Source: Calditrichia bacterium (GTDB taxonomy: Bacteria; Calditrichota; Calditrichia; JAJRVZ01). From it: a stretch of 64,000 nucleotides of DNA. Shown here one piece after another: positions 10,256 to 63,745 of this stretch. Position 1 is the stretch's first letter. Every line of letters starts with the position of its first letter. Below the pieces are notes generated by a model that worked only from the letters and a program-made list of their open reading frames with translations, had not been told where the DNA came from and did not search any database. The stretch covers positions 194,167-258,166 of the forward strand of contig CAWCNS010000007.1 of the NCBI GenBank assembly GCA_963796965.1, given 5' to 3'. The position numbers and the translations under genes are program-made.

Positions 10256-10411
10256 TAATGAATATCACAATTGACACGAAGCTAACGCATTGCGCATAGG
10301 GCAAAGCAAAGCGCAAAGCAATGAAATGATTTTACGGTTTTAACATTGCTCTATGCGCCATGCTCTATGCCGAAGATTATATAGATTTCATTTAAACTAA
10401 GCGAATAACAA

Positions 10412-13513
<3,102 letters not shown>

Positions 13514-16413: not shown

Positions 16414-17663
16414 ATGGAACTCATAGGAACGCCTAAACTGGAATTGAACACAGAAGCCAAACGCTTTATTAATCTATATAGCTCTCTCGGAGAGCGTGCT
16501 GAAAATTTCCTCCCGGATCATATATTTGAAAGTCTTAAAAACTTTGCCCGTATATGTTGTGAAGAACCCGATGATCCAAACCGGTTGATCGCTTGAGATC
16601 TCACAAACGTCTGCTTGGAACTTAAAGAGGCAATTCCCGGATATATTGATGTCTCATTAATGATTTTTCCTCATGAGAGTTCAAAAAATTATGAATATTC
16701 CAACCGTCGCCGCTTATTTACAAATCGTCTTAAACATTTAATGGATATCGAACTCATCGATGAACAGCAAAAAGTCCAGGTGAAAAATATATTAAATATG
16801 CATGATTATTCCCTCGGGTACACCACCGGTTACCAGACAAATGATAGAATTTCTATATCGGGTAATGGTTGGTGATGAAGTCCGGGAATTGCGTAAATTC
16901 CGCGATATTTTAGGTATTACCGGATATGCTGGAAGTCGCCCAGTGGAATTACTTGCTCGATGTTATCGATCAAATGGTCGTCCAGAGTACACATTATACA
17001 ACCCAGACAGAACAGAAACGCCTTTTTAGTACGTACTGAATCTACTGTTAATTTTAAAGGACTAAATGGTTTTATCCGTACGGTTGTATCGGGAAGTACC
17101 GAAACAGTCAGTAAACTTTTCGTGAGGAGATTTTTGGTCCTGACGTGGTTAAAACCATAGAATTCCTCTCCCCGGAGCAGGTCTATAAAGAAGTAAGTCA
17201 GGATACGACCAGTATCTTTCTTATAAAGGCTCGACATCTTCGCTCAAATCCTTTAAAAGATATGAAATGGTTCCCTCATTTGAGCAGGATGATATTTGTT
17301 GATGATTCTATGGAAGCCCGTGCAACCAATACCACATTGGTTTTCGCATTTCATAATGAAATAATAAATACATTGAATAAAGTCCATACAAAGAAATTAG
17401 GGGCTGCTGCCAATACACAGTTAAATCTGCGTCTGATTCTGGAAAAAGTGAATGTTAAAAATATTAGTCGATTCCGGGAGGCTGCTGAGGCAAAAATCAA
17501 AGATTATGAAGAAGAACTTAAGCAGTTAAAGAATGAGCAACTTGCTGATCCGAAAAAACCTGAACAGGATATTATTTTATTCAAGTTTGATGAATTTGCC
17601 AGGCAGATATTAAAAGATAAATATATCATTTCCAAATTCGCCGGATTTCCTGACATTTATTGA
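16414..17663 (+). pseudogene. Uncharacterised gene(s) on one strand, broken into 5 overlapping ORF fragments
   Basis: ORFs 16414-16596, 16615-16875, 16802-17029, 16960-17160 and 17145-17663 form an overlapping same-strand chain typical of a long gene with indels. No recognisable motif. Confidence 0.3.
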
Positions 17664-17670
17664 ATATATA

Positions 17671-19931: not shown

Positions 19932-20232
19932 TTCTCACTTGCTGGATGATCCGGATGAGCTTTTAATTATGTTGGAAATATTAATTGAACTTGAACGTAT
20001 ATTATTTTCAGATTCTAAATTCAAGGTTGTCGCTTTGCGTGCCAATGAAAAGGACCCGGCGGGTGATTTGGCCAAACTTGAAGGCTATAATGAAATTCTG
20101 AAGAAGTTCATCGGCGAACTTTTACTTCATTTCAATTTACCTTTCGAAAAGGAATTATCTGAACCTTCTCAGGAGCAACTTCTTCGAATCAGCTGGCGAT
20201 GTATTCGAGAAAATCACTGGAAAGTCAATTAA
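19900..20232 (+). CDS. Hypothetical ORF fragment overlapping the preceding ORF's end (possible frame-shifted tail or small separate gene)
   Basis: Overlaps 19176-19931 in another frame; no motif recognised. Confidence 0.2.
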   Translation: MSPVSWNFQPDSHLLDDPDELLIMLEILIELERILFSDSKFKVVALRANEKDPAGDLAKLEGYNEILKKFIGELLLHFNLPFEKELSEPSQEQLLRISWRCIRENHWKVN

Positions 20233-20421
20233 CGAGTTGAGTATTGCCCTTGGCTGGTGATGAATTGCTGCAAAAAGTTATGGAGGATAAGGATCTGAAA
20301 TTGAACATCCCTATTCCCGACTTATATTGGATATTTTTCAGGGGATATTCAAAACAGAATTTTAAATCCAGAGACTGATATTCCGTAGAACAATTATTAA
20401 AAATCTATCAGCTTTTATCAG

Positions 20422-23636: not shown

Positions 23637-24962
23637 ATGATACAGCAAACTAAAAGATTACCCAAAAAATATTTTATATTAATTGCGTTGATAATCCTAC
23701 TTATTCCTTTTGGATGCGCAGAAAAGGCTGGTCAGAACAGTAACGGAAATTTGCTCATTCCTGCCGTTGAGGCAGTTAAATCTCGTTATGGTGCGTTGCC
23801 ACTTACAGAGCGATTCTCTGGATTGGTCAAAGCAGAAAATCAGGTTGGAATCTACCCGGAAACAAATGCTGCCATTATAACTGTTTATGTTGAAAACGGA
23901 GATTATGTGAAACGCGGACAAGCATTAGTGCAATTACGCGATAAAGAATTTCAGGAACGGTTAAAACAGGCCCGGGCCAGTTACCAGATTGCTGAAGCAC
24001 AGTTGAAACAGGCCGAAGCACAGATGCTGGAAATAAAGGGAGATCTGCAACGTGTCCGCTCATTATCAGATCAGGGACTAGCCAGTACTGCTGAGCTGGA
24101 AAATATAAGGACTGAAGCCCTCTCTGCTGAAGCGAATGTAGCTCTGGCACAAGCAAGGGTTGTACAAGCACAGGCGGTCGTTGATGAAAGGCAGGAAATT
24201 CTCTCGCAGACAACGATTCGCGCTCCAATATCTGGCAGAGTTGGCAACCGCCGCGCAGAAGTGGGCATGTTGGTGAATAGTAATTCGCGTCTATTTACAT
24301 TAGGCCAGATGGATAATCTACGTGTCCAGATTATCCTGACAGATTATATGATGGATTATATCAAGATAGGCCAACGTACAGAAATTGATCCCTCTGGTCG
24401 GTTGTCAGATATTTTATCTGCGCCACTTAAACGTCTTTCACCCTTTCTTCATCCCATAACTCATACGACCGAAGCTGAGATTGATCTTGACAATAAAGAT
24501 GGAAAATTGATGCCGGGCATGTTTGTTACTGTAGATGTTTTTTATGGCGAAAGTGAACAGGCTACTTTAGTGCCGCTAAGTGCACTTTATGATAATCCGA
24601 GCAGTGGTGAAACAGGTGTTTATATACCTGAAGAACCATTGATACGTGAACCGACCAAATCAACCCCCGGGGCACATGGGGGCGCCCTGAGTGATCCTAT
24701 TTCTTTCAAATTTGTTCCTATAGAAATAATCGCTAAAGGACGAATGGAAGCTGGTATAAGGGGTGTTGAGGCTAATAATTGGGTTGTAATTCTTGGCCAG
24801 GATCTTCTTGCCGGTAAGGCAACTAAAGCAAGGGTGAGAACAGTCGATTGGGGCTGGGTTGAGCAATTACAAAACCTCCAGCGTGAGGATCTATTAGAAG
24901 AGATCATGAAAAAACAGCAATCTTCTAGCCGTGATAGTGTCTCCCTTAACATGTCAAATTAA
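23637..24962 (+). CDS. RND efflux membrane fusion protein (HlyD/AcrA family)
   Basis: Lipoprotein-like N-terminus (LIPFGCA), long coiled coil (AEAQLKQAEAQMLE...), beta-barrel/MP domains. Confidence 0.8.
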   Translation: MIQQTKRLPKKYFILIALIILLIPFGCAEKAGQNSNGNLLIPAVEAVKSRYGALPLTERFSGLVKAENQVGIYPETNAAIITVYVENGDYVKRGQALVQLRDKEFQERLKQARASYQIAEAQLKQAEAQMLEIKGDLQRVRSLSDQGLASTAELENIRTEALSAEANVALAQARVVQAQAVVDERQEILSQTTIRAPISGRVGNRRAEVGMLVNSNSRLFTLGQMDNLRVQIILTDYMMDYIKIGQRTEIDPSGRLSDILSAPLKRLSPFLHPITHTTEAEIDLDNKDGKLMPGMFVTVDVFYGESEQATLVPLSALYDNPSSGETGVYIPEEPLIREPTKSTPGAHGGALSDPISFKFVPIEIIAKGRMEAGIRGVEANNWVVILGQDLLAGKATKARVRTVDWGWVEQLQNLQREDLLEEIMKKQQSSSRDSVSLNMSN

Positions 24963-24980: not shown

Positions 24981-27900
24981 ATGAATCTGACTAAACTGGC
25001 TGTCGAACGTCCGATTGCCACAACCATGGTGTTTTTAATAATCATTATCCTCGGTATCAGTGGTTTCCGTTTTCTGCCCGTCGATCTTCTACCACCTATT
25101 GAGTATCCAATCATAGGCATTAGAACTTATTATCCAAATGTAGGACCAGAAGAAATTGAAACCATTATCACTGATCGTATAGAAAATGCCATTGCTGGGG
25201 TACCCAATATTGAGGAAATTCGTTCAACATCAGAAGAAGGCCGCAGTAGTGTCACCATTGAATTTTCTCAGGGAACAAATCTTGATGAAGCAGCAAATGA
25301 TGCGCGAGCTGCTCTTGACCGTATCCGAGATGATTTGCCACCGGAAATTGAATCACCCCGCCTTTGGAAATTTGACCCTGATAATTTCCCTATTATTATG
25401 ATCGGTGCCCATTCAAACCGCAGCATGGATGAAATGACCAGAATCCTGGAGCGGGAGATCTCGCAACGTTTTGAACAGATTCCTGGTGTTGGGACCGTGG
25501 ATATTTGGGGTGGGGTATATCGCGAAATACAGATACGTTTAAAACGAGATCGGCTCGCTTCCAGGCAATTGTCCGCCTCCGATGTCCGGCAGGCATTAAT
25601 AAGAGAAAATTTAACCCTTCCTGGTGGTGATATGAGGGAGGGGCTCAACGATATGTACGTACGCACCCGCGGAGAGTACCAGTCGCTTAATGAAATCGCC
25701 AATACTATAATTACGATGGTAGACGGACAACCTATCCGTATCAAAGATATTGCTGAGGTTAAGGATGGTTTTAGTGATATTAGTCGCATTGTACAAATTG
25801 ATAGACAAGCGATGGTGCGGATGGGGATACGCAAACAATCGGGATCCAATACGGTTACTGTTGCACGAAAAGCCAGAGAAGTAATGGCGCAGATCAACCG
25901 TGAACGGGATGATATTCACCTCCTGGTTGTCATTGATCAGAGTGAGTTTATCCAAAATTCTATTAATAATGTTCAAAAATCAGCTATTTGGGGTGGACTT
26001 CTAGCTATTTTTATTCTTTATATTTTTCTACGAAACGGTTCAACAACTTTTATTATTGCCCTCGCAATTCCAATCTCAATCATTGCAACCTTTGGACTGT
26101 TGTATTTTAATAATCTAACCTTGAATCAAATGAGCTTCGGTGGATTGGCATTAGGAATTGGACTCATTGTTGATAATGCGATTGTCGTGTTGGAAAATAT
26201 TGTCAGACTACGCGAAAACCGTCACGAACTGGTGGAAAGTGCTTTAACTGGAACCAAGGAGGTTACGGGGGCAATTGTCGCCTCGACTTTAACTACTTTG
26301 GTCATTTTTCTGCCAGTTGTATTCATGCAGACTCTTTCTGCCATGCTGTTTAAGGAACTGGCCCTGGTTGTTGTCTTTGCTCTGCTATGTTCACTTTTCA
26401 TTGCTCTCACGCTCGTACCAATGCTTAGCAGCCGCTTTCTAACCGTTCATGCGGGAGAAAAGACAACCGACAGCGAGAAATCACGGATTGGGCGCTGGTT
26501 CCTTCGACTGGAAAATAGATATTATCAATGGTTGCAGGAGGCCATAGAACATAAAAAAATTGTTTTCCTTGTCACAGCTGCTCTTTTAGTCATAACTATC
26601 TTGCTTTGGCCCCTGTTATCCGTAGAACTCGCTCCACAGACCGATGCTGATGAAATTGATGTCGATATACAAATGGCACAAGGAACTAATATTGCCGTTG
26701 TACACGAATATCTGATGGAACTTGAACAAATTGTACGTTCAGTCATACCGATGGACCAGATCCGTCACATGACGGCTGAAATCCGACCTGGAGATGCCGA
26801 AGTTGAACTTTCACTAAAAAATGCCAATGAGCGAACGATAAGTAGTTTTGATCTGGCTGATCAGATTCGTGCAAATGTGGCCGGACGTGTACCTGGGACG
26901 GATATACGCGTAACAGCCCAATCGGGATTGTGGATGCTGCGCAGATTATTTGGATCTTCGGGAGGGGAGGCTGTACAGATCGAACTACGAGGGTATGATC
27001 TCGATCTGGCTGATTATCTGGCAAAAAATATTGAGGAAGTTGTGATGCACCACCCCGAAATTGCCGATGTGCGCATTAGTCGGCGTCAAGGACGCCCCGA
27101 ACAGAATATGATCGTTAACCGTGAAAAAATTGCCAATCTTGGTATATCAGTAAGTCAGGTTGCTGAGGTCATTCAGACGAATATTGGTGGTATGCAAGCT
27201 GGGGTCTTCCACGAAGATGGTGAAGAGTATCCTATAATTGTACGATTACAACCAAAAGACCGTCTCAATACCCAGGATTTAGGCAATGTTTCTGTACGTA
27301 CTGCTTCCGGACAGATCCTACCGGTTTCTGCGATCGTTGATATACAACGCCGGCGCAGTCCGGTAGAAATTGACAGAATTAATGGTCAGCGTGTCACATA
27401 TATTACAGCTAATTTACAAAGCGGGGCGGCTCTCGGTGATGTGGTAAGTAAATTACAGGATGATTTACAAGGATTGTCTCTTCCTGAAGGATTTTCCCTC
27501 GTTTTCAGTGGTGAATTCCAAGAGCAGCAAGAGGCACAGCAAGATTTCTTAATTTCGATTTTAATGGCCGTAGTACTTATTTACATGGTAATGGCAGCTC
27601 AGTTCGAACGTTTCTTAGATCCCCTTATTGTCATGGTTGCTGTTCCTCTGGCATTTATCGGTGTGGTACCTACGCTTTTAATAACGGGTACATCGCTAAA
27701 TATCCAAAGTTTGATGGGAATTATCATGCTTATTGGTATTGTCGTAAATAATGCTATCGTGCTTGTAGATTATATTAATCTCCTGCGCCGTGATCAAAAT
27801 ATGCCTGTTAATCAGGCAGTAGTTCAGGCAGGCCGTTTACGCCTGCGACCAATCCTGATGACTACCTGTACAACTGTGCTTGGTATGTTACCGCTATCCT

Positions 27901-28049
27901 TTGGTACAGGTGCAGGTGGTGAAATTCAAGCCTCACTGGCCAGGGCGGTTATCGGTGGACTCACTGCTTCCACTTTAATTACCTTGATATTAATTCCGGT
28001 GACATACATTACAGTTCATGGCATTTTTGATCGCCAGACTGCAAGATAG
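24981..28049 (+). CDS. RND multidrug efflux permease (HAE1/AcrB family)
   Basis: 1022 aa, 12-TM RND architecture (MNLTKLAVERPIATTMVFL..., SFGGLALGIGLIVDNAIVVLENI, ..ILMTTCTTVLGMLPL..). Confidence 0.85.
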   Translation: MNLTKLAVERPIATTMVFLIIIILGISGFRFLPVDLLPPIEYPIIGIRTYYPNVGPEEIETIITDRIENAIAGVPNIEEIRSTSEEGRSSVTIEFSQGTNLDEAANDARAALDRIRDDLPPEIESPRLWKFDPDNFPIIMIGAHSNRSMDEMTRILEREISQRFEQIPGVGTVDIWGGVYREIQIRLKRDRLASRQLSASDVRQALIRENLTLPGGDMREGLNDMYVRTRGEYQSLNEIANTIITMVDGQPIRIKDIAEVKDGFSDISRIVQIDRQAMVRMGIRKQSGSNTVTVARKAREVMAQINRERDDIHLLVVIDQSEFIQNSINNVQKSAIWGGLLAIFILYIFLRNGSTTFIIALAIPISIIATFGLLYFNNLTLNQMSFGGLALGIGLIVDNAIVVLENIVRLRENRHELVESALTGTKEVTGAIVASTLTTLVIFLPVVFMQTLSAMLFKELALVVVFALLCSLFIALTLVPMLSSRFLTVHAGEKTTDSEKSRIGRWFLRLENRYYQWLQEAIEHKKIVFLVTAALLVITILLWPLLSVELAPQTDADEIDVDIQMAQGTNIAVVHEYLMELEQIVRSVIPMDQIRHMTAEIRPGDAEVELSLKNANERTISSFDLADQIRANVAGRVPGTDIRVTAQSGLWMLRRLFGSSGGEAVQIELRGYDLDLADYLAKNIEEVVMHHPEIADVRISRRQGRPEQNMIVNREKIANLGISVSQVAEVIQTNIGGMQAGVFHEDGEEYPIIVRLQPKDRLNTQDLGNVSVRTASGQILPVSAIVDIQRRRSPVEIDRINGQRVTYITANLQSGAALGDVVSKLQDDLQGLSLPEGFSLVFSGEFQEQQEAQQDFLISILMAVVLIYMVMAAQFERFLDPLIVMVAVPLAFIGVVPTLLITGTSLNIQSLMGIIMLIGIVVNNAIVLVDYINLLRRDQNMPVNQAVVQAGRLRLRPILMTTCTTVLGMLPLSFGTGAGGEIQASLARAVIGGLTASTLITLILIPVTYITVHGIFDRQTAR

Positions 28050-29833: not shown

Positions 29834-31027
29834 ATGATTGAGATTAATAAAAAACAGAATACCAGACTACCCAGAATTATGCTCGGTTTATTTAGTGGGA
29901 TTGGCATATTTATGGTATTGGCCGGAATTATCCAGTTGTTTATAGGTGAATTTGAAGCCTTTTTCGGATTAATATTTTCTGGTATAATCTTTTATGGATT
30001 AGGTTGGGCAGGTAGAAGGGTACTAGTGCCTCGGGAAAAAGATACACCACCCGATATTGGCAAAATCGCCGGAACGATTTTTGGGGGTGTCGGATTGATT
30101 ATTGTATTTAGCAGTATTTTGTTTTTTTTTGATGGTGACCTTGAAAGTGGCTTTTTTATGTTTGCATTTGGGTCTGCTTTTACTGGGGCTGGTTATCTTG
30201 CATACAGATTGTTCCGGGTTCCGGTGGGGAAAAAGGCTGTATTGGTAAATGAGCGAGTTCAAAATCTGCATGGAATGATAGGGCAGACCGGTCAACGCAC
30301 AAGCCAGCAATATGTTTATGTGGATGAAAATACGCATGATGATAAAATAGAGACAATAAGGGAAACCGTTTCTGACAAGCCCTGGACTCAAAGAAAGGAC
30401 TGGGCTGAAGGAAAGATTATTCAAGTCGGAGCAAAAAATCTCATTTTCCTTGTTGCTTTTACAATCATGTGGAATCTGATTGCTGGTGGAATTGCTGCTT
30501 TTGCGATGGCTGATGAATGGGGCGGGGGGGATATACCCTGGCTAATACTGATATTTCCGGGCGTAGGCTTAATTTTGATCGTTGCAACAATTCGAACCTG
30601 GATACGACGAAAAAAATATGGCATTGGCATCCTAAAATTGGATGAGGTGCCCGCCTGGCTTGGTGAGCGTTTGAAGGGTGTTGTAGAAACGGGTGTTTCG
30701 GCAGATAAGCAACCAGAAGGTGGATTTAAATTGCGCTTGGTTTGTGTGGAACGAAATTCTTATCGTGATAGTGATGGAGATAAAAGCGTGAGAGAGAATG
30801 AACTGTGGCAGGAAGAACAACAAGTGTATGGATCTGTATCAAACAAGGATTTTACCTTTGCCCTTACGGTTTATTTTAATATTCCAGATCATCTGCCTCC
30901 TACCCGAATGATCCCGGCAGATGATCGCACCCTCTGGCGGGTTGAAGCATCTGCATCAACACCCGGTGTTAACTACGCAGCAAAGTTCGAGGTACCTGTG
31001 TTTGACAAATCCAATAATGTTGATTAA
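29834..31027 (+). CDS. Hypothetical polytopic membrane protein
   Basis: Two clusters of TM helices separated by soluble segments; no catalytic motif recognised. Confidence 0.5.
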   Translation: MIEINKKQNTRLPRIMLGLFSGIGIFMVLAGIIQLFIGEFEAFFGLIFSGIIFYGLGWAGRRVLVPREKDTPPDIGKIAGTIFGGVGLIIVFSSILFFFDGDLESGFFMFAFGSAFTGAGYLAYRLFRVPVGKKAVLVNERVQNLHGMIGQTGQRTSQQYVYVDENTHDDKIETIRETVSDKPWTQRKDWAEGKIIQVGAKNLIFLVAFTIMWNLIAGGIAAFAMADEWGGGDIPWLILIFPGVGLILIVATIRTWIRRKKYGIGILKLDEVPAWLGERLKGVVETGVSADKQPEGGFKLRLVCVERNSYRDSDGDKSVRENELWQEEQQVYGSVSNKDFTFALTVYFNIPDHLPPTRMIPADDRTLWRVEASASTPGVNYAAKFEVPVFDKSNNVD

Positions 31028-43988: not shown

Positions 43989-44879
43989 TTGAAAAAACGA
44001 TTTGCTGTGGCTGGTTTGGGTGAAATTCTATGGGATCTGTTACCAGCAGGTAAAATTTTAGGAGGTGCTCCCGCAAATTTTGCTTATCATGCTCAATCTT
44101 TGGGAGCAGAAAGCTTTGTTATCAGTGCGATCGGAGATGATAGTCTCGGAAAACAAATATCAGATAAATTAACTCAGATAAATTTATCCACTTCAAATAT
44201 TTCGATTGATAAGGAATATCCTACCGGTACGGTTGAAGTCCATATAGACCCGGTGGGAGTGCCGGAATATGTTATACACACCAATGTTGCCTGGGATTTT
44301 ATTCCTCGATCGAAAATTAATCTGAATTTGGCAAAAGAGCTGGATGCCATTTGTTTCGGTAGTCTGGCACAAAGATCTCCGGTATCACATGAATCAATCA
44401 AAAAGATTATCAGAGAAACACGACAAGACTGCCTGAAAATATTTGATATCAATATCCGTCAGTCATTTTATACTAAAGAAACAATTGAAACCAGTTTAAA
44501 AATCTCTAACTGTTTAAAACTTAATGAAAGTGAGTTGTCGCTATTAACTGACATGTTCTCTATCAAAGGCAATGAAACGAGTATAATTGATAGATTCATG
44601 AATAATTTTAATCTCGAGTTAATTGCCCTTACAAAGGGCAAAAATGGCAGTGTGCTCTATACACCCTCAACACATTCAAAGATGGCTTCACCAATTGTTC
44701 AGGTCGAAGACACTGTCGGAGCGGGCGATGCCTTTACATCTGCTTTATGTATAGGCTTATTAAACAATCATCCCTTAAGAATAATACATCAAGATGCCAC
44801 GAACATAGCCGCTTTTGTTTGTACGCAAAAAGGGGCTACACCGGTGCTTCCAAATAATTTAGAAATGGAGAATAAATGA
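43989..44879 (+). CDS. PfkB-family carbohydrate kinase (fructokinase/ribokinase-like)
   Basis: GGAPANFAYHA N-terminal motif and C-terminal GAGDAFTSAL. Confidence 0.75.
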   Translation: MKKRFAVAGLGEILWDLLPAGKILGGAPANFAYHAQSLGAESFVISAIGDDSLGKQISDKLTQINLSTSNISIDKEYPTGTVEVHIDPVGVPEYVIHTNVAWDFIPRSKINLNLAKELDAICFGSLAQRSPVSHESIKKIIRETRQDCLKIFDINIRQSFYTKETIETSLKISNCLKLNESELSLLTDMFSIKGNETSIIDRFMNNFNLELIALTKGKNGSVLYTPSTHSKMASPIVQVEDTVGAGDAFTSALCIGLLNNHPLRIIHQDATNIAAFVCTQKGATPVLPNNLEMENK

Positions 44880-47393
44880 AATATTTTGATTATACCATCA
44901 TTGCATTAAGTGCATGCCTATTGCTTGCTTTTATAGGGTGTAAAACAAAGCCATCCCATTGGAAACCTGCTTCAGGTCCATTATTTTCAAAATTTGCTAA
45001 AGATCTTGCACCAGATTCAGTTCTTCAGGAATATCCACGTCCGCAACTAGTTAGAAAAGATTGGTTAAATCTTAACGGCCTTTGGGAATATGCAATCGTC
45101 CGTTCAGGTGACGCCCAACCCGAAGAATATGACGGTAAAATTTTAGTTCCTTTCCCAATTGAGTCAGCTTTGTCAGGTGTTATGGAACGTGTTGGTGATA
45201 AAAATGAACTATGGTATAGGAAAACATTTAAGATTCTGGACCAATGGATGGATGACGATAATCGCGTCATACTAAATTTTGGCGCTGTTGATTGGGAAGC
45301 AACGGTCTGGTTGAATGGGAAATTAGCCGGTAACCATAAGGGTGGGTATGATGCCTTTAGTTTTGATATAACGGATTATCTTTTACCAGCACAAGCACAG
45401 GAATTGGTGATAAAGGTTTGGGACCCGGTTGATAAAGGCACACAACCCAGGGGGAAACAAGTTAGTAATCCACATGGCATATGGTATACATCTGTAACCG
45501 GGATATGGCAGACTGTATGGATTGAGCCGGTTAACGAAACGCATATTGAATCTATCAAATTATCACCAAACATCGATCAAGCCAGATTAGAAATTGATCT
45601 ATCCATATCGGGAGAAAAGCAGAGGAGATTTAATTGTATCAAGTATTTTTCTTGATGGCCGTGAGCTCTCCCAGGTACATACAAAACCTGGAAATTCAAT
45701 TTATTTTGATATTGAAGATCAACAGTTATGGACACCCGATTCTCCGACACTTTATGATTTAGAAATTAAGTTGGTAAATACTGATGGAACTGTAATAGAT
45801 AAGGTTCAGAGTTATGCGGGTATGCGCAAAATATCAATTGAAAAATATGGAAGTAAATCACCGCGAATGTTTTTAAATAATGAATTTGTTTTCCAGGTCG
45901 GGCCTCTGGACCAGGGTTGGTGGCCGGATGGACTGTATACGGCCCCAACGGATGAAGCTTTAAGATACGATATCGAGATTACAAAGAAACTGGGTTTTAA
46001 CATGGCCCGAAAGCATGTAAAAGTAGAACCAGCCAGGTGGTATTATTGGTGTGATAAATTAGGACTCCTTGTCTGGCAGGATATGCCCAGCGGTGATGCG
46101 TATATTGGCCGGAATGATCCGGATATTAAACGTTCTCCCCAATCTGCGGCCCAATTTGAAATGGAATTAAAAAATGTGATCACACAATTCGGGAATCATC
46201 CGAGTATCGTGGTATGGGTACCCTTTAATGAAGGGTGGGGGCAATATGATACGGGAAGAATTGTAGATTACATTAAAACAATCGACCCCTCCAGATTAGT
46301 AATCAATACCAGTGGATGGTCTGACAGAGGAGTTGGCGATATTCATGATATCCATGCCTATCCGGGGCCTGCGATGCCCGATCCTGAAAAGAAGAGGGCG
46401 ATTGTATTGGGTGAATTTGGTGGACTTGGCTTACCACTCGAAGGTCATACCTGGCAAAACTCCAATAATTGGGGATACAGGAGTTATAAAAATGCCGATG
46501 AACTTACTTTGGCCTATACCAATCTGTTCCGCGCTCTTCTGCCAATGGTTGGTAAGGGGCTCTCTGCTGCTGTATATACGCAGACAACTGACGTAGAAGT
46601 TGAGGTGAATGGTTTAATGACCTATGATCGTGCTGTCATAAAAATGGATTCGGAGAAGGTTAATCGCATTAATCAGGGATTTTTGCCACCCGTTATTAAA
46701 TCTGATCACGATATTTTTATATCTTCTATGGCTATAACCTTTTCAAATGTAATTCAGGATGGCCAGATTCATTACACTCTTGATGGGTCAGAACCAACCA
46801 AGCAATCCCCGGTTTACACCAAGCCTGTCATTATAAAAAAGACACAAATGGTCCGTGCATTTACAGCCTTTAATGATGGTACCAGTAGCGATGTCGCAGA
46901 AAAGAAGTTGGAAAAAGTCAAATTGAATGATCCTGTATTGGTTGATGCCCCGAAACCTGGTTTGTCATGTGCCTATTATGAATATGAGGATCAAGGCTTG
47001 CTAAAACTGCCAATTTTCGAAAGTTTGGAGGTGAAAGCGGAACAAATTACAAAAAATATTGGAATTCATCTGGCCAAACGTGACGAATATTTTGCTTTAC
47101 AGTTTAAAGGATTTCTTAATATTTTGAAGGATGGTGTCTATACATTTTATTCAAATTCTGATGATGGATCACAATTATTTATTCAGAATCAATTGGTCGT
47201 GGATAATGATGGTACCCATGGTATGATAGAAAAATCAGGGGCGATTGCTTTAAAAAAAGGCTTTCATGTTTTTCAGCTGAATTACTTTCAGGGGCGCGGA
47301 AAAGGGGAGAGTGGCAAGGGATTGCAGGTCCGTTTCAGCGGACCTGGTATTGCTAAGCAGGAAATTCCTTCTTCAGTACTTTTTAGGAGATAA
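44876..47393 (+). CDS. Glycoside hydrolase family 2 enzyme with C-terminal PA14 domain (one frame change near 45594-45655)
   Basis: GH2 sugar-binding N-domain (NFGAVDWEATVWLNG), catalytic region (WQDMPSGD, VPFNEGWGQ), and PA14 at the C-terminus (CAYYEYED...VYTFYSNSDDGSQLFI). Confidence 0.7.
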
Positions 47394-52237: not shown

Positions 52238-54613
52238 ATGAAAATTTCTTATAATTGGTTAAAAGACTATGTGGAGTTCGATCTTTCTCCGGAGGCATTG
52301 GCTGAAAAATTAACGATGTCAGGGCTTGAGGTGGAGGAGGTTAAGCCGGTTTTACCTGAATTTAGGGGGATAATAATTGCCCGAGTTCTTTCGGTTGAAA
52401 AGCATCCAAATGCAGATAAGTTGTCCGTATGTAGCGTTGATTCCGGCAATGAACATTTTCAGGTAGTATGCGGTGCGGCCAATGTCGCAGAGGGCCAGCT
52501 TGTACCATTCGCCCCTATAGGGACGGATTTGCCTGTCGGATTTTCAATAAAAAAAGCGAAAATAAGAGGAATAGAGTCATTTGGTATGATATGTTCGGAA
52601 GAAGAATTAGGTCTTGCCGATAAATCTGAAGGGATCTGGGAACTTCCCGCAGATTCAAAATTTGGCAAAGATCTCTATGATTCCCTCCGCCATACTCAAG
52701 ATTACATGATTGATATTTTTATTACGCCAAATAGGCCGGATGCCATGAGTATGATTGGTATCGCAAGGGAAGTGGCAGCCATTATCGACACATCATATCA
52801 GGGACCGGAATTTAATAAAAAAGAACAATCTATCCTGGCTTCAGAAAATGTGTCCGTAGAGATTGAGGACATCGATGGCTGCCCGCGGTATGCAGCCAGG
52901 GTGATTAAAAACGTAAAAATTGGGCCAAGTCCAGCATGGATGGTGGATCGCCTAAAAACATGTGGCGTAAGACCAATAAATAACATTGTTGATATTACTA
53001 ACTATGTGTTGCTTGAACTCGGGCAGCCACTCCATGCGTTTGATCTGGCTCAGGTATCCGGTTCTAAAATAATCGTCCGAAAATCCAAAGAGAATGAAAT
53101 ATTCACTACGCTGGATGAGAAAGAGCGAAAACTACCCGAAAACACCGTCATGATCTGTGATGCTGAGAAAGCTGTAGCCGTTGGTGGAATTATGGGAGGT
53201 TTAAATTCTGAGGTTTCGGAAGAAACAATAGACATCTTATTAGAAAGTGCTTATTTTAATCCAATAAGAATTGGAACCTCAGTCTAAGAAGTTGGGGTTA
53301 TTTTCGGAAGCTTCCCAGCGATTTGAAAGAGGTGTCAATCCTAATTATATTCCTTTCGCCTGTGACAGAGCAGCTTTTCTTATGCAGGAATTGGCAGAGG
53401 GTGAGGTTCTTAAAGGGATAGTTGATGAATATCCAGAAAAGATTGTAGAAAAAGAAGTTTCTGTGCGCCCATCACGAATTAATCACCTCTTAGGTACGGA
53501 CCTTAATGAGAAAGAAATTGGTGGTATATTCTCCCGATTAGGTATCAAATATGATCAGAATAGGGCAATTGTTCCTACTTTTCGTCCCGATATAGAAAGA
53601 GAAGTTGATCTCATCGAAGAAGTTGCTCGTCTGATTGGTTTCGATAGTATACCGGTAAAAAAACAGTCACTGATAGAGTATGATGCTAAATTGAATAAAT
53701 CTGAAACCCTTTTTAATTTATTAAAGACAGAAATAAAGCAATTGGGTTTTTTTGAAGCCTTGACAAATAGTATGGTTTCCAAGCAGGAACTTGGATTCAT
53801 TGGTGATGGTGAATATATAAAGATATTAAATCCAATCAGTGATGATATGAATATAATGCGCAGGTCATTGATTCCAGGTCTTTTAAAGGTGTTGTGCTAC
53901 AATATCAACAGAAGTGCTTTTGATATGCGATTATTTGAGATGGGGCGGGTATTTAAAAATAGTGATAGTAATAGTCAGCCTTATTTCCTGTCTGGACTTA
54001 TTCATGGCTCCCGAAAATATCCGGGCTGGTCCGAAACCGCACTACCTGTTGATTTTTATGACGTTAAGGGAGTTGTTGAGACATTTCTTTCCAAAATATT
54101 CCTTGACAAATATGAATTTATTTTATATGATAATACGTTGTATTTTGATCCGGAGCAGGCTCTCAAAGTAGCATGTGATGGAGAGTTGTTGGGCAGTTTG
54201 GAAAAATAAAAAAAGAGGTTGCCCACGGATTTGAAATAGACTCAGATGTATATGGCTTTGAATTTTCTGTTGATGCGATAAAGGATCATATTAATAAAAA
54301 TCAGCTCTTTGAGATTTATTCAAGATTTCCTTTTATTGAAAAAGACCTTGCTCTGGTGGTTGATACCAAAGTAACGGCAAGTGAGATTGATTCACTTATT
54401 CGAAATAGCGGAAAACCTCTGGTTGAAGATGTTTCCGTTTTCGATTTGTATAAAGGAGATCAGCTCGAGGAATCAGAAAAGAGCCTCGCATTCCGCATAC
54501 GCTTTCAGTCTTCTGAAAGAACTTTAAATGAAAAGGAGGTCAGCAAGATTTTTAGCAAGATAATTGTTGATGCTGAGCGTAAATTTGGTGCAAAATTACG
54601 TGACCAAAAATGA
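52238..54613 (+). CDS. pheT: Phenylalanyl-tRNA synthetase beta subunit, with at least 2 frame changes (~53280, ~54200)
   Basis: tRNA-binding N-terminal domain, B3/4 and B5 domains. The C-terminal FDX-ACB domain lies in the 54356-54613 ORF. Total ~792 aa. Confidence 0.85.
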
Positions 54614-55179: not shown

Positions 55180-55200
55180 TTACTATAGGCATTTAGAACT

Positions 55201-55377
55201 GCCCTGTATTTATTCGTGGTGCATATTTAAGAACCAACACCTTTAAACAGGGAGCCCGGCTCTGGGCGGCAAGAGTATGCCCCTTTAGGGGAAACCCGAC
55301 CCGTTTAGGAGGGTACCCATCATATTTGGCATTAGGTTCAAAAAATATCACTCACATGATGAATACAGGGCTTTTTT
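55201..55377 (+). ncRNA. ssrS: Candidate 6S RNA (SsrS)
   Basis: About 177 nt between zapA and rny. A long irregular closing stem (5' GCCCUGUAUUUAUUCG...GAACC pairs with 3' GGUUC...GAUGAAUACAGGGC), a GC-rich internal region, and a U-tract at the 3' end. The zapA-ssrS synteny is known from E. coli. Confidence 0.5.
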
Positions 55378-55412: not shown

Positions 55413-56977
55413 ATGTTTTTAACACTTCTGATAACATCTGTAATTGTAGCGACGGTTTTCTTCCTTGTTGGCTGGTTGCTTAATTCAACATTTGGAAAGA
55501 AATCCTTAAAAAATGCGCGTAACAAAGAAAAAGAAATTGTTGCAAATGCTGAAGTAGAATCTGAAAATATAAAGCGTGAGAGACGGATTGAAGCGGATGA
55601 AGAATACTATAATCTGAAACAAACATCTCGAAGAGGAGTTTCGTAATAAAAAACGATCGCTTCAAAAAGAAGAGCAGCGTCTGAATGAAAAAGATACAAA
55701 TATTGATCGCAAATCAGACTATATCACCAAAAAAGAAAGCGAACTGAATCAACTTGAAAGAGATTTGAAATCAGAAGAAACACAATATCCTGCTTAAACA
55801 GGAACGATTAGATGGTATTATTCTGAACAAAACAACATGTTGGAAAAAATTGCCGGTTTGACTTCTGAGGATGCCAAAAAAATACTAATGGATAATCTGG
55901 TTGAAGAAGCGAAGCAAGGTGCGGCAAAGATTATTCAAAGTATAGCGGAAGAGGCAAGAGCAGAAGCGCAGTAATCAATCAAGAAATATTATAATTACTG
56001 CCATGCAGCAATCAGGTGATTGATATGGCAATTGAATCTACTGTCTCCACTGTTGTTATTGCCTTCCGATGATATGAAGGGGAGAATCATCGGCCGTGAA
56101 GGACGAAATATACGCGCCTTCGAAGTTGTGACCGGAGTGGATGTTATTGTTGATGATACGCCCGGTTCTATTATTTTAAGTGCTTTTGATCCCGCTGCAG
56201 ACGTGAAATTGCACGTATTGTAATGGAAAAACTTGTTGCAGACGGTCGTATACATCCTGGTAGAATTGAGGATATGTATGAAAAGATTAAGACTGAAATG
56301 GATGAATATATGCGTGAAACGGGTGATCAGGTACTTTTGGAATGCGGTATTCATGGTGTGCATGCTGAACTGGCCTCTCTTTTAGGCAAATTACGATTTC
56401 GAACCAGTTTTGGTCAGAATGTACTCCAACATTCAAAAGAAGTCTCTGTTATTTCTGGTATTATTGCCGCTGAGTTGGAATTGGATGTCCATCTTGCAAT
56501 AAGCGGCCGGATTATTGCATGATATCGGCCGTGCAACAGATAAAATCCACGGATAATAACCATGCAGAAACAGGTGCAGAAATTGCCAGAAAATTTAATG
56601 AAAATGAAATTGTTCAGAATGCAATTGCTGCCCATCATAGTAATGTAGAGCCAAATTCACCAATTAGTATCATTGTACAAATTGCTAATGAACTAAGTAA
56701 AAGCCGTCCTGGCGCCAGAAGAGAAGCGATTGAAGGTTTTATTAACCGGATGCGTCAGATTGAAGCTATTGCAGAATCGTTTGATGGTGTACAACGTTCA
56801 TTTGCCATTCAGGCTGGAAAAGAAATTCGTGTGATTGTTTCCCATGAAAAAATTGATGACAATCAAATTCATCATCTCGCAAAGGATATTGCTATTAAAA
56901 ATTGAAGAAGAAATTGAGTATCCGGGTCAAATCAAAGTTGTGGTCATCAGAGAATTCAGGGGTGTTGATTACGCTTG
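55413..56977 (+). CDS. rny: Ribonuclease Y, at least 6 frame changes
   Basis: N-terminal TM plus coiled coil ([23 protein letters not shown]..), KH domain ([15 protein letters not shown]), HD domain (..AAHHSNVEP..). End motif ..[13 protein letters not shown]. Confidence 0.75.
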
Positions 56978-57228
56978 ATCTTTAAAGCAAGGATCAATTT
57001 CTCCTTGTAGATACTATTTCTGTATGTAGTAAGATTCCGATCCCGAAGCGCGATCCCGTTCCGAGACAGAATGACATAATTAGAAGATTGTTAGGACACA
57101 GTCTAATCGGGCAAAGACGATTGATGAAACTTAGTGGTATATTTTTTTCTTAGCGAATTTTAGCGACTTTGCGAGAGAATATATTAAATTACAATAAACT
57201 TTAAAAATTTGAATTTACAGGACAGAAA

Positions 57229-58110
57229 ATGGATCCGAAAATAATTGATGGGAAATTAGTCAGTAAAAATGTAAAAGAATCAATAAAAAACGAAACATTA
57301 ACGTTACTTAAACAAGGTATTCACCCCGGACTTGTTGTCGTTCTGGTTGGAGAAGACCCTGCTTCAGCTATTTATGTTCGAAATAAGGGCCGCGCCTGTG
57401 AGAATGCCGGCATACTATCCGAAACCATCAAACTTGAAGAGTCAACCAGTGAAAGTGATTTATTAAATCTAATCGATAAATTGAATAATGATAAAAGATT
57501 TCATGGGATCCTGGTTCAACTTCCACTTCCAAAACATATTAATGAGACAAAGGTTTTAGAATCGATCAATCCTGAAAAAGATGTAGATTGTTTTCATCCA
57601 ATTAATGTTGGTCGGTTAGTGAGTGGAAGACCTTATGTTTTGCCCTGTACACCTGCTGGAATAAGAGAAATGTTAAGTGCATATGATATTCCCACAGCTG
57701 GGAAACATGTTGTTGTGATTGGACGTAGCAATATAGTCGGCAAACCTATGGCAAATTTATTAATGCAGAAGTCAGATGATGGAAATGCTACGGTTACGAT
57801 CGTGCACAGTAGGACCAAGGATATCCCACATTATACCAAACAGGCGGATATACTTGTTGCTGCAATGGGGTATGCTCATTTTGTCCGGAGCGATATGGTA
57901 AAAGACGATGTGGTTATTATTGATGTTGGTATGAATAGAATCGATGCGGACAATGAAAAGGGATACCGTCTCGTCGGCGATGTGGATTTCGATGATGTTT
58001 ACTCAAAAGTATCTAAAATTACGCCAGTTCCCGGTGGTGTCGGACCGATGACGATTGCCATGTTATTAAAAAATACTTTAACAGCAGCAAAGTTTCAAAG
58101 CAATAAGTAA
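57229..58110 (+). CDS. folD: Bifunctional methylenetetrahydrofolate dehydrogenase/cyclohydrolase
   Basis: ..YVRNKGRACE.., ..PGGVGPMTIAMLL..; 293 aa. Confidence 0.9.
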   Translation: MDPKIIDGKLVSKNVKESIKNETLTLLKQGIHPGLVVVLVGEDPASAIYVRNKGRACENAGILSETIKLEESTSESDLLNLIDKLNNDKRFHGILVQLPLPKHINETKVLESINPEKDVDCFHPINVGRLVSGRPYVLPCTPAGIREMLSAYDIPTAGKHVVVIGRSNIVGKPMANLLMQKSDDGNATVTIVHSRTKDIPHYTKQADILVAAMGYAHFVRSDMVKDDVVIIDVGMNRIDADNEKGYRLVGDVDFDDVYSKVSKITPVPGGVGPMTIAMLLKNTLTAAKFQSNK

Positions 58111-58188
58111 AATACACCCGAACATATGTGATATCTTTTTGAAATTAAAAGAAATCATAAAATAATTGTTTTATATCACCTCAAAATT

Positions 58189-59091
58189 ATGAGCGATACA
58201 CACCTTTATAAAAAATACCTAGATCCCGCCATCTTAAACAACATCCAGAATCTTGAACTCAGGGCAAGACTTGTGGTTGAAGGATTTATAACGGGGTTAC
58301 ATAAGAGCCCCTTTCATGGTTTTAGCGTAGAATTTTCACAACATCGCCCTTATAATTACGGGGATAACCTAAGATATATAGATTGGAAAGTCTATGGGCG
58401 TACAGATCGCTACTATATAAAGCAATTTGAAGAAGAAACAAATCTTAAGTCCTATATATTATTGGATATAAGCAAGTCAATGGAATTTAAATCAGCAACT
58501 ATCTCAAAATTGGAATATGCAAAAAGCCTAACTGCTGCTTTATCATATCTTATGCTTTCTCAACGCGATGCTGTTGGATTAGGTTTGTTTGATTCCGAAC
58601 TTAAAAAACTTATGCCCCCCAGATCGGCCGCATCTTATTTACAGAGCATTCTCCGTGAGTTGGACATTCATGCAGAAGGAGAGGATACAAAAATCAAACC
58701 CGTTTTACATGCGATGGCCGATCGTCTGAAAAGAAGAGGTCTGGTTATACTTATTTCAGATCTTTATGATGATCCTGAAGAAGTACTCTCAGGTTTAAGA
58801 CATTTTAGATATAATCAACATGAGGTGCTTGTCTTTCATCTTCTGGATCCTCAGGAAATCAATTTTGAGTATGATGGAGATGTGGAATTTGAGGATTTGG
58901 AAACTGGGGAAAAAATAAGAACATATCCCTGGTACATAAAAGAGGAATATAGAAAATCTGTCAAATCGTTTGAAAAAACATACCGGAATTTATGTCGTGA
59001 ATACTTGATAGATTACCAGATGATTAGCACGGATCAGAATTTGGATGTTGCATTGATGGAGTTCCTGATAAAAAGAAAAAAATTAGGATAA
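58189..59091 (+). CDS. DUF58 (vWA-like) protein
   Basis: Typical DUF58 N-terminus (..GLHKSPFHGFSVEFSQHRPYNYGDNLRYIDWKVYGRTDRYY..). No adjacent MoxR ATPase in the window. Confidence 0.6.
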   Translation: MSDTHLYKKYLDPAILNNIQNLELRARLVVEGFITGLHKSPFHGFSVEFSQHRPYNYGDNLRYIDWKVYGRTDRYYIKQFEEETNLKSYILLDISKSMEFKSATISKLEYAKSLTAALSYLMLSQRDAVGLGLFDSELKKLMPPRSAASYLQSILRELDIHAEGEDTKIKPVLHAMADRLKRRGLVILISDLYDDPEEVLSGLRHFRYNQHEVLVFHLLDPQEINFEYDGDVEFEDLETGEKIRTYPWYIKEEYRKSVKSFEKTYRNLCREYLIDYQMISTDQNLDVALMEFLIKRKKLG

Positions 59092-59093
59092 CT

Positions 59094-60137
59094 ATGACAA
59101 GCAAAAAATATAAATTGACATCATTAGCTTCCTGTGCAGGCTGAGCAAGCAAGTTAGATCCGGCGTTGCTGGGTGAGGCTCTTAAAAATATTTCATTTCC
59201 GACTTCTGACAATGTTCTTGTTGATAGTTCAAATGCCGATGATGCAGGTGTAATTAAAATCAATGATGACCTAGCGTTGGTTCAAACAACCGATTTTTTT
59301 ACACCAGTTGTAGATGATCCCTATCTTTTTGGACAAATAGCTGCAGCGAATGCATTGAGTGATATTTATGCCATGGGTGCTAAACCCTTGTCTGCTTTGA
59401 ATTTAATATGTTTTCCTGATAATCAGCTAGACATTGAAGCATTTCGACTGATTATTGAAGGTGGGGCTGAAAAGGTTCGTGAAGCAGATGCCGTAATTCT
59501 GGGAGGACATTCTGTCTCTGACAAGGAATTGAAATATGGCCTTGCTCTAAATGGAACGATTCATCCGAATGCCATAAGGGTAAACCATAACCTTCGAATT
59601 GGTGATCTTCTAATCCTAACAAAACCCATTGGCACTGGGATACTCACAACAGCATTAAAGAATGAGATCCTCGAAGAATCAGATATTAAGAATGTTATAG
59701 ATAGTATGCTATTACTCAACAAAGAGCCGGCAAGAATTTTGGATGATTATATCACTTCAGCATGTACGGATGTTACAGGATATGGACTTATAGGGCATCT
59801 TTGGGAAATGCTCAATGGATTAGAATGTGGTGTAAATCTATATGTTGATAAAATTCCATTTTTTGAAAGGGCCATTCAATATGCCAGGGAATCAAATTAC
59901 ATCCCCGGCGGCACTTTGGCCAATATAAAATATAACATAGATCATGTCGAAATGGGGGCGTTTGAGAGCTGGTACCAAAATATACTGTTTGACCCGCAGA
60001 CATCAGGTGGACTCTTGATTAGTATGCCCGAAGGGCAGGTTGACCAATTTTTAGAAAGATTTGTAGATTATCCGTTACCGGTAGCGGTCATTGGTGAAGT
60101 TGTAGATTCCGCGAATAAAATATTTCTAAGGGAGTAG
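59094..60137 (+). CDS. selD: Selenide, water dikinase (selenophosphate synthetase), selenocysteine-containing (in-frame TGA at 59142-59144)
   Basis: ATG at 59094; the 17th codon is TGA within ..LASCAG-U-ASK.., aligning with the catalytic Cys/Sec17 of SelD (E. coli HGAGCGCK). The frame continues into the 59166 ORF (FFTPVVDDPYLFGQIAAANALSDIYAMGAKP). Total 347 aa. Confidence 0.75.
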
Positions 60138-60760: not shown

Positions 60761-62678
60761 TTATTCTCGTGCCTTCTTCAAGGGCAGTTGAATTAAAAGA
60801 TAAAAGAGCCCGATAAAGGCTAAGATACCCAAATAGGGTGTGGGTGAAAATAAGGACAAACTTGTAAGGCTAAAACTACCTTCACTGAGACTCACTCCGG
60901 CAACAATAAAGGCCAGAATTACAGCCGTTAAAGATTCGCCTGCAATAAGCCCTGAGGATATGAGAACGCCTGTGTTTGCGGCCTTTGTTTTGGCTTCATC
61001 TGAAGCATTTTCCTTATCCAATACTTTCTCAAGGGTCCATTTTATAATCCCACCAACAAAAATTGCAGCGGTGGAATGAAATGGAAGGTACATGCCTACG
61101 GCGACCAGCATAGGTGAGGGTGCTTTAACCAAAATCAGACCAAATGCCAAGAACATTCCTGCAATAACTAAAGGCCAGGCCATATCACCACCGACAATTC
61201 CTCTTGCCATTAAGGCCATCAATCCTGCCTGTGGAGCAGGCAAAGCTTCACTTCCTATTTCATAGACCTGGTCAAGTACGATCATTGCCCAGATCAGAAC
61301 CAAAGCAGCAGCCGTTACGCCTATAATTTCGCCTACTTGCATTCGCCAGGGTGTACCACCTAATATATGTCCGACCTTAAGATCCTGCATCATATCACCG
61401 GCAATACCGGCCGCACAGCAGACTACTCCTGCTACCCCTAAAACAGCCATTATGCCCTGATTTCCTGTTACGCCTATACCAACCATGAGTAGGGCTGCGA
61501 TGAGAAGTGAGGAGAGTGTCAGGCCACTGATTGGATTATTAGAACTACCAACCAGTCCGACAAGGTATCCTGCAACAGCTGCAAATAAAAATCCTAAAAT
61601 GATCATGACGACCGTGAGTAAGATTGATCCTCCAATTGATCCGCTGAAATAATGATATAAAATAAAGAGGGGTATCGCAATGCCGGCTATTGCAAGCATA
61701 ACTTTTTTAAAGTCCAGATCGATATCCAGTCTGCTCACAGATTTGTCACCGCCACTTTTCGCAGCAGCGATATCACCCAGGGCTTTCTTGATACCGGTAA
61801 TAAGTGAATTACGTAAATTATAGAGGGTATAAAAAGCGGCAACAATCATCGTTCCTACGGCGAGAGGCCTCACCTGACGCATCCATACTTCTAAACTAAC
61901 ATCTATCCATGAACTGCCTGTGGCAACAAGCGCGCTTAATTCAGGATTTAGAAAAACAAAAGCCGGCACTAGAAAAAGCCAACCTGATACGGCGCCGGCA
62001 AAGAGAACTGCTGATACACGCATTCCTACAATAAAGCCCACACCAACTAAGGCCGGTGAAGCTGCTGGAGATTCGAAAAGAAAGCCGCCGCCATAATCAA
62101 TATCTTTTCCAAGCATATTTATTTTTGATGAACTCATGGGGAAAAAATCACGGACATAATCTTTAACCATATATATGCCGTTTGAATTTTTAAATAATTC
62201 CCAGAGAGCTGCCAGGCCCATTGCACTAAATACATAAACGGCACCTGTCTGCCCACCTTGACCGGCTTTTACAATTTCCGCGGCTGCAACACTTTCAGGA
62301 AATGGTAAGATCGGCTTCTTCAACTAGAGATCGGCGTAAAATTATAACAAATAGCACACCAAGCACACCACCAATTAACATGATTGCGGTACTTTCCCAG
62401 TAGTGTAATTCATCCCAAACTCCACTAATAACAAAGGCGGGAATGGTAAATATGGCCCCGGCAATCAATGCTTCACCAACCGAAGCAGTGGTTCTTGCCA
62501 GATTTTCTTCTAAAACTGTGCCATTAAAGAGACGAAGTGCAGCCATGGCAACAACGGCAGCAGGAAAGGTTGCCGCTACAGTTAGCCCTGCCTTCATTCC
62601 AAGATATGCATTTGCAGCACCCAAAACGACAGCCATGATTATACCCAGAATAATAGCTTTTGAGGGATAATTCCTTCA
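60761..62678 (-). CDS. OPT-family oligopeptide transporter, at least 2 frame changes (~62300, ~62650)
   Basis: MKELSLK... (out of frame), then AVVLGAANAYLGMKAGLTVAATFPAAVV and a 16-TM OPT architecture. Confidence 0.7.
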
Positions 62679-63010
62679 TGTCGGAATCAGCCGGAACAAA
62701 AGGTTTAAATTGACGATTTCTCCATCTGTGCTCCTGATATTTATTATTTAAATAAATGATGAGTTTTTGGCAGGAAAATTGCTTAGAAACTACTTTTTAA
62801 CCTAAAAAAAGTCAAGTTTTATTTGGACTTGAGGAATTGTATCAAACCAGCAGAGAGGATCGCAGAGAATGTCAGCCCCTTAAAGAGTGGATCTCTAATC
62901 ATTAATAAATACAATTGTTTACATCTATTAATCACCCTTGAATTCAATTTGCAATAAGTTTAAAGATTGATTAAGTTAAGTCTGATTTTTTAAAGGGCTT
63001 TACACAAAAA

Positions 63011-63745
63011 ATGCGGTTTCGCCTTCAGGTAGAATATGACGGGTCAGCCTATTCTGGTTGGCAAGTACAAAATGGTCAGGTGACAATTCAAGGAGAAATT
63101 GAAAAAGCATTAACGACCATTTTTGGCATCAAATTGGAATTATTGGTGCGGGGCGAACTGATAGTGGTGTACATGCTCGCGGCCAGGTCGCCCATTTTGA
63201 TTCTGAAAGTGATATTGAAACATCCGGAAAATCCTGCGTTCTCTGAACGGGATCTTGAATAAAGATATTCGAATAACTGATAATTCAATCTGTAGATCCC
63301 GAATTTTCATGCCCGCTATAATGCTAAAATTACGTGTCTATCGGTATTACATCTCTCAAAAACCGATTGCATTATTATAGAAATTATTCTTGGCAAGTTT
63401 ATTGGGGACTAAATCTTTCATATATGAATGATGCCTGCCAAATGGATCGCCGGATGTCATGATTTTAAAAGTTTTTGTCGCGAATTATCTGAGGTAGAAA
63501 ATCACTTTTGCACCGTCCGTCTTGCCCAATGGGAGATGCAAGATGACATGATTGTTTTTCAATTGAAGCAAACCGTTTTCTTCATGGTATGGTTCGGGCA
63601 CTGGTAGGGACATGGTTGATATCGGCAGGGGCACCGTAAATCTGATGATATTATTAAAATTATTGAAGCAAAAAACCGCATCTTTGCAGGGCCTTCAGCA
63701 CCCGCGAGGGTTTGGTGCTGGAAAAAGTACATTATTAAGCAATAG
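63011..63745 (+). CDS. truA: tRNA pseudouridine(38-40) synthase, multiple frame changes
   Basis: [20 protein letters not shown]...; [21 protein letters not shown] is readable in a shifted frame. Confidence 0.65.

Follow-up and report, generated by a model that had tools for sequence, protein, structure and literature searches.

That SelD, the selenophosphate synthetase, can itself contain selenocysteine (Sec) is textbook knowledge, and so is the tendency of automatic annotation to go wrong at the in-frame UGA of such Sec-type selD genes. In the cysteine-containing SelD of E. coli, Cys17 and Lys20 are essential. No bacterial selenoproteins are more widespread than FdhA and SelD (PMC1794560; PMC13188914), with Sec-containing SelD ranking second, and 19% of the prokaryotic SelD genes in a reference genome set carry Sec, always at the position of the catalytic cysteine (PMC4561486). 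The bacterial SECIS model (bSECISearch; PMC13188914, Figure 2 legend) describes a hairpin with an apical loop of 3–9 nt that has a G in its first two positions, usually G and then G or U, an upper stem of 4–16 bp, a spacing of 16–37 nt between the UGA and the loop, and a minimum free energy of -7.5 kcal/mol or lower.

The window analyzed here, by which we mean the whole 64-kb stretch of DNA, very probably holds a gene of this kind, since its sequence comparisons point to a selenoprotein form of SelD (selenide, water dikinase) with Sec at UGA-17 and a hairpin downstream (Table 1). This supports the core of an earlier sequence-only reading of the same DNA, which had proposed a selD with Sec at codon 17, specified by an in-frame UGA and a recoding hairpin just downstream. 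That reading had also pointed out that an ATG at 59094 runs in frame through the TGA at 59142 and that the open reading frame had been listed from 59166 onward. Indeed, the TGA is codon 17 of the frame that begins at this ATG, and no further stop is met until the TAG at 60135–60137, giving 348 codons including the stop. The mechanical list of open reading frames begins the gene at the TTG at 59166, and the NCBI/ENA protein collection contains the exact 323-aa product of this TTG, on a contig of 974,597 bp. The gene call on the 2.4-kb Logan contig L161 has the same start. Because gene callers stop at the UGA, the public record thus holds a truncated SelD without the catalytic loop, which should be corrected to a selenoprotein of 347 residues.

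Table 1. Features of the selD locus, in window coordinates.
Feature	Position	Strand	Basis
Full-length selD coding sequence, 347 residues plus stop, UGA-17 predicted to be read as Sec	59094..60137	+	Translation, TIGR00476, alignment to 2yye/3u0o
Start codon ATG, predicted true start	59094..59096	+	ATG and leader peptide common to L001 and L081–L083; residues before the ATG differ
AGGA, possible Shine-Dalgarno sequence, 5 nt upstream of the ATG, within the 3' end of the upstream DUF58 gene	59085..59088	+	Read from the sequence
Predicted Sec-UGA, codon 17, motif C-A-G-U-A-S-K	59142..59144	+	Aligned with E. coli Cys17 and the Aquifex Sec-to-Cys position
Candidate bacterial SECIS hairpin	59152..59180	+	Minimum-free-energy structure, published SECIS criteria
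Proposed stem-loop agcaa/ttgct, alternative pairing, not favored	59148..59170	+	59148–59152 with 59166–59170
TTG start of the public annotation, 323-aa product; lies in the loop and 3' arm of the candidate SECIS	59166..59168	+	Public protein

The identity of the product as SelD is clear from profile searches, for which the UGA of the 347-residue product was replaced by a Cys codon. The NCBIfam equivalog TIGR00476 (selD) matches with 362 bits against a cut-off of 125, aligning residues 7–313 with positions 1–308 of the 311 in the profile, and NF002098 matches with 306.4 bits (cut-off 299). Position 1 of the TIGR00476 profile is thus residue 7, which lies upstream of the UGA. The product also aligns over residues 3–339 with the solved SelD structures 2yye and 3u0o, with E-values of 2e-75 to Aquifex aeolicus SelD (2yye/2zod) and 3e-59 to E. 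coli SelD (3u0o). In these alignments the UGA stands exactly opposite Cys17 in E. coli and opposite the Cys in the A. aeolicus Sec-to-Cys protein, and the Lys three residues on corresponds to Lys20, so that C-A-G-U-A-S-K is paired with G-A-G-C-G-C-K of 3u0o and S-S-G-C-A-A-K of 2yye. There is good agreement here with the sequence-only reading, which had placed the TGA at the catalytic Cys/Sec of selenophosphate synthetase. The DDAGV, TTDFF, SDIYAMG and TDVTGYG motifs are kept in both alignments; in line with the published structures, we take these Asp-containing motifs to be ATP and metal ligands of the AIR-synthase-like fold.

We then compared the locus with 160 SelD loci, found by scanning metagenome contigs and a genome set with one member per species, and could locate the catalytic codon in 158 of them. 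This codon was TGA in 85 cases, TGC in 27 and TGT in 46, and at none of the 158 loci was it TAA or TAG, which is why the occurrence of TGA at the catalytic Cys/Sec codon cannot be put down to chance. The nearest relatives were a Calditrichota MAG (L001) and three metagenome contigs (L081–L083), the only close relatives that the metagenome scan contributed, with SelD proteins 64–68% identical to that of the window. All four share with the window the gene order HD-domain gene, folD, DUF58, selD, PqqD-like gene, OPT transporter, and the neighboring proteins are 65–87% identical. We know of no link to selenium for folD, DUF58, the PqqD-like protein or the OPT transporter.

The ATG, the TGA and the leader between them, M-T-x-K-K-Y-K/R-L-T-S-L-A-S-C-A-G, are kept in all four relatives. 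Across the five sequences the amino acid is invariant at 14 of the 16 leader codons, and 11 of these 14 codons vary synonymously. Invariant amino acids in the face of so many synonymous changes mark the leader as a translated peptide under constraint. A true start downstream of the TGA, which would have spoken against a Sec-encoding selD, is at odds with this result, as both the TIGR00476 profile and the conserved leader begin before the UGA. The clade also has an invariant Cys three residues before the Sec position (C-A-G-U, that is C-x-x-U; 59133–59144), and its TGT codon is identical in all five sequences. The same C-x-x-U arrangement occurs in some other Sec-type SelDs (e.g., L017, L040 and L068). 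In the clade, this Cys could form a selenenylsulfide with Sec17.

Turning to the RNA, the minimum-free-energy structure of the 59 nt that start at the UGA is a hairpin of -11.4 kcal/mol. Its lower stem pairs AGUU with GGCU (59152–59155 with 59177–59180), its upper stem of 7 bp pairs AUCCGGC with GCUGGGU (59158–59164 with 59168–59174), and its apical loop is the 3-nt GUU at 59165–59167, which starts with G-U and lies 20 nt after the UGA. All four of the published bacterial SECIS criteria are satisfied by this structure. Of 77 distinct Sec-type SelD genes, 66 passed the same criteria, compared with only 14 of 67 Cys-type genes, and the local folding energy of nucleotides 10–40 averaged -8.4 kcal/mol in the Sec type versus -3.9 kcal/mol in the Cys type (Mann-Whitney p = 2e-13). 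The model is permissive: of the window's 2595 TGA triplets, 11.6% pass our implementation of the criteria, and 2.9% are followed by a hairpin that reaches -11.4 kcal/mol or lower. The hairpin energy is not unusual when compared with shuffled versions of its 59 nt (z = -0.27). A search against Rfam gave no match to a SECIS family at E ≤ 10 in 59080–59260, and none at the gathering score in the whole window. Taken alone, then, the hairpin goes only moderately beyond chance, and the comparative evidence is the stronger.

The upper stem can pair in 42 of 42 cells, covering six of six clade sequences. Changes in the stems of the clade comprise two wobble switches and one double change in the lower stem, and are mostly exchanges between G-U and A-U; with only six sequences the covariation was not significant, the observed score being reached by 185 of 500 shuffles. 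One change is seen between the window and L161, where G>A at 59162 converts a G-U pair into A-U; this is one of the four substitutions between the two assemblies outside a variable intergenic stretch. In the five divergent genes of the clade, invariant third codon positions are most frequent in the ten-codon windows that immediately follow the UGA, with 5 of 10 compared to 46 of 346 over the whole gene.

The sequence-only reading had placed the recoding signal in another stem-loop, agcaa/ttgct. This stem-loop does exist, and it pairs in 27 of 30 cells over the six clade sequences, but as a SECIS it is weak and is overlapped by the stronger hairpin. It has 5 bp, dropping to 4 in half of the clade sequences, with a G-G mismatch at the sixth position; its loop of 13 nt lies only 8 nt from the UGA, and its energy is -2.3 kcal/mol. 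It thus fails three of the four criteria, namely those for loop size (3–9 nt), spacing (16–37 nt) and energy (≤ -7.5 kcal/mol). Since the two stems share 3' nucleotides they are mutually exclusive, and the energy model strongly favors the 7-bp stem. It is therefore highly improbable that the signal is the agcaa/ttgct stem. The hairpin at 59152–59180 is the better SECIS candidate, a ranking made by energy and fit to the model and not by covariation.

A number of explanations could account for the UGA without Sec. If it were a real stop, the 323-aa product from the TTG would be the functional protein, or the gene would be a pseudogene, and the 16 upstream codons would be untranslated or encode a short peptide. 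This is the product that automatic annotation gave, and no Sec machinery is visible within the window. However, the shortened protein would be without the Gly-rich loop, the catalytic Cys/Sec17 and Lys20, and would leave unexplained why the 16 codons are conserved as amino acids, with abundant synonymous change, in relatives that are only about 65% identical, and why TIGR00476 aligns from before the UGA. Inspection of the sequence also revealed no purine-rich ribosome-binding sequence ahead of the TTG. A real stop is thus very hard to reconcile with the data, and we regard it as highly unlikely. An error in sequencing or assembly that changed TGC or TGT into TGA might be suspected in a window where at least six genes are frameshifted relative to intact orthologues, but the errors in the window are indels, not substitutions. 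Moreover, the same TGA is present in L161, an independent short-read Logan assembly from another sequencing run whose sequence departs from that of the window at just 4 positions over 57234–59426, and TGA is found at the aligned codon in the four divergent relatives and in 80 further homologues. The probability that the TGA is such an error is practically negligible.

Alternatively, the UGA could be decoded, but as Cys, Trp or another residue, either by SECIS-independent read-through or because the codon is reassigned. We know of no bacterial precedent for this. The Sec machinery of this genome is here itself only deduced, and a precedent does exist in insects, where UGA-containing SPS genes occur in the absence of Sec machinery; for hymenopteran SPS1-UGA, SECIS-independent read-through has been proposed (PMC4561486). 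On the other hand, TGA terminates 11 of the 41 other open reading frames in the window and the long open reading frames are intact under the standard bacterial code, from which it follows that UGA is not reassigned, and a conserved hairpin that fits the SECIS criteria is present. We therefore give non-Sec decoding very little credence. Taken together, these sequence comparisons rule out that the TGA is an error of sequencing or a nonsense mutation of recent origin, and they rule out a variant genetic code.

On the preferred reading, that UGA-17 specifies Sec, translation would begin at the ATG at 59094 and, by analogy with the established bacterial pathway, SelB carrying GTP and Sec-tRNA(Sec) would bind the hairpin at its apical part when the ribosome comes near. 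The UGA would then be read as Sec, with release factor 2 as the competitor, which would place Sec as residue 17 in the mobile glycine-rich N-terminal loop (C-A-G-U-A-S-K) that bears the catalytic Cys/Sec and the Lys. The predicted Sec17 SelD would make selenophosphate from selenide and ATP, and selenophosphate is what SelA needs to form Sec-tRNA(Sec). This scheme presumes that SelB binds, that Sec is actually inserted, and that the genome carries selA, selB and selC outside the window. A positive feedback, with SelD requiring its own product for its synthesis, would follow from the pathway. The sequence-only reading had called the gene 'autoregulated' because of this circularity between SelD, selenophosphate and Sec-tRNA, which is discussed in PMC1794560; as a description of the gene, the word is speculation.

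From the conserved Sec-UGA and the putative SECIS, we infer, soundly in our view, that the organism would decode Sec. ARAGORN found no tRNA-Sec in the 64-kb window, where it reported only tRNA-Tyr and tRNA-Val, and none in the 5–13 kb loci of the close relatives. Among the open reading frames of the window scanned against Pfam there was no SelA, SelB or selenouridine synthase. The open reading frames at 17145–18987 were considered as a fragmented PLP enzyme such as SelA, but they gave only a weak match to Aminotran_1_2 (E = 4e-5) and none to a SelA family, and the idea was rejected. A scan of the window for genes with an in-frame TGA revealed no convincing second selenoprotein gene. Candidates at 9797, 11024, 11694, 15972 and 16594 proved on translation to be pieces of a disrupted RND efflux operon, or else read-through of non-coding sequence, and the TGAs at 9797, 11024 and 11694, which lie in broken RND and membrane-fusion fragments, were rejected as Sec codons. 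In ARAGORN runs on 20 related loci, the sole tRNA-Sec was found beside the selD of a Dehalococcoidales MAG (L078), at 1677–1773 and approximately 4 kb upstream of that Sec-type gene. The gene marks its host as one that likely uses selenocysteine, in whose genome other UGA-interrupted genes are probably mis-annotated as well.

The remainder of the window shows a number of features of its own. Several genes are split over at least two frames, namely pheT (52238–54209), a GH2 glycosidase (44876–47393), the OPT transporter (60761–62715), truA (63011–63735) and the HD-domain gene (55621–56975), while their orthologues in L001 and L081 are single intact open reading frames. The OPT transporter has 656 aa in L081 versus 520 + 113 aa in the window, and the HD-domain gene, of 560 aa in L001, is broken into at least four frame segments. 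PheT is essential, and because its gene is split we favor an indel-prone assembly, perhaps from long reads, over biology. For the frameshifts as a whole, the pattern suggests an indel-prone assembly or real decay, and the overall accuracy is poor. The selD gene is intact in the window, and its region is confirmed independently by L161. Upstream of folD, the intergenic stretch at 57064–57215 differs between the window and L161 by 12 substitutions and 20 indel positions in approximately 150 nt, compared to 4 substitutions in the next 2.2 kb; this variability could stem from misassembly of an A/T-rich stretch or reflect an element that truly varies.

At 9410–13500 lie pieces of a membrane-fusion protein and of a CzcA/CusA-like RND heavy-metal efflux pump, interrupted by stops and frameshifts, and further along a second RND system is intact (HlyD-like at 23637–24962, AcrB-like at 24981–28049). 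At 55198–55375 on the plus strand, upstream of the HD-domain gene, is a 6S (SsrS) RNA, which Rfam RF00013 matches with 54.1 bits against a gathering score of 46.4; its region is conserved in L001 and L081. Two large open reading frames are without a Pfam match, one of 882 aa at 20422–23070 and one of 397 aa at 29834–31027 (in the regions 17145–23070 and 29834–31027), and they are preceded by shorter open reading frames in different frames at 17145–19931, one of which has a weak aminotransferase-like match. Lastly, a DDE transposase (DDE_Tnp_1_6/DDE_Tnp_1) at 4391–5248 on the minus strand marks an insertion sequence; a gene for a Ser/Thr kinase-TPR protein lies close by, at 1889–3778.

The survey of SelD loci also produced observations on the Cys-type genes. 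Some of these (L018, L037 and L038, from Cohnella and Paenibacillus) keep a stable SECIS-like hairpin directly after the TGC, e.g., AUCGGUCCGGCGGACCU, which resembles a 'fossil SECIS', a remnant of the conversion of Sec to Cys, as described in PMC1794560. A Calditrichaceae MAG (L041, 4960–6972) encodes a Cys-type SelD with a long N-terminal extension, approximately 670 aa in total, and long N-terminal extensions are also present in many Cys-type SelDs of Bacteroidota (e.g., L013, L024 and L049). The extended proteins are probably the known oxidoreductase-SelD fusion. With the extended Cys-type SelD of L041, both Sec-type and fused Cys-type SelD occur in MAGs labeled Calditrichota.

The clade of the window is tied to the Calditrichota MAG by its conserved gene order and by neighboring proteins that are 66–77% identical. 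A literature search for selenocysteine together with Calditrichota or Caldithrix found nothing relevant. We see roughly even chances that the clade represents a case of Sec decoding in Calditrichota that has not been described before, with a C-x-x-U SelD and a SECIS shifted by one codon, and in which the trait might even be maintained by SelD as its principal or sole selenoprotein. The new elements are minor: a Calditrichota-related lineage, the conserved C-x-x-U and the one-codon shift of the SECIS. The gene adds one lineage to the well-mapped distribution of Sec-type SelD and leaves its concepts as they are.

Compared with the SelD of E. coli (3u0o), the catalytic position 17 and Lys20 coincide exactly with those of the window's SelD, whereas E. 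coli has Cys (UGC) and no SECIS where the window has UGA. The hairpin of the window fits all constraints of the bacterial SECIS consensus (bSECISearch model), but no curated Rfam covariance model matches it. The closest likeness is to the Sec-containing bacterial SelDs, among them that of A. aeolicus (2yye/2zod, solved as a Sec-to-Cys variant), which belongs to the same family, TIGR00476, and those of Haemophilus influenzae, Deltaproteobacteria and Clostridia. With these the window's SelD shares the position of Sec in the Gly-rich loop, followed by x-x-Lys, and a short hairpin with a G-rich 3-nt loop within the coding sequence after the UGA. Points of difference are the Cys of C-x-x-U, which is conserved in the window's clade, and the placement of the hairpin. 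In most of the sampled Sec-type genes of other phyla, a GGUCC-loop-GGACC hairpin lies over Gly-Pro-x-Asp codons, with the loop starting at nucleotide 20–21 counted from the U of the UGA, whereas in the window's clade the form is AUCCRGC-GKU-GCUGGRU and the loop begins only at nucleotide 24, a downstream shift of one codon that a few other genes share. From its sequence, this shift of the candidate SECIS would be a minor positional variant inside the permitted range.
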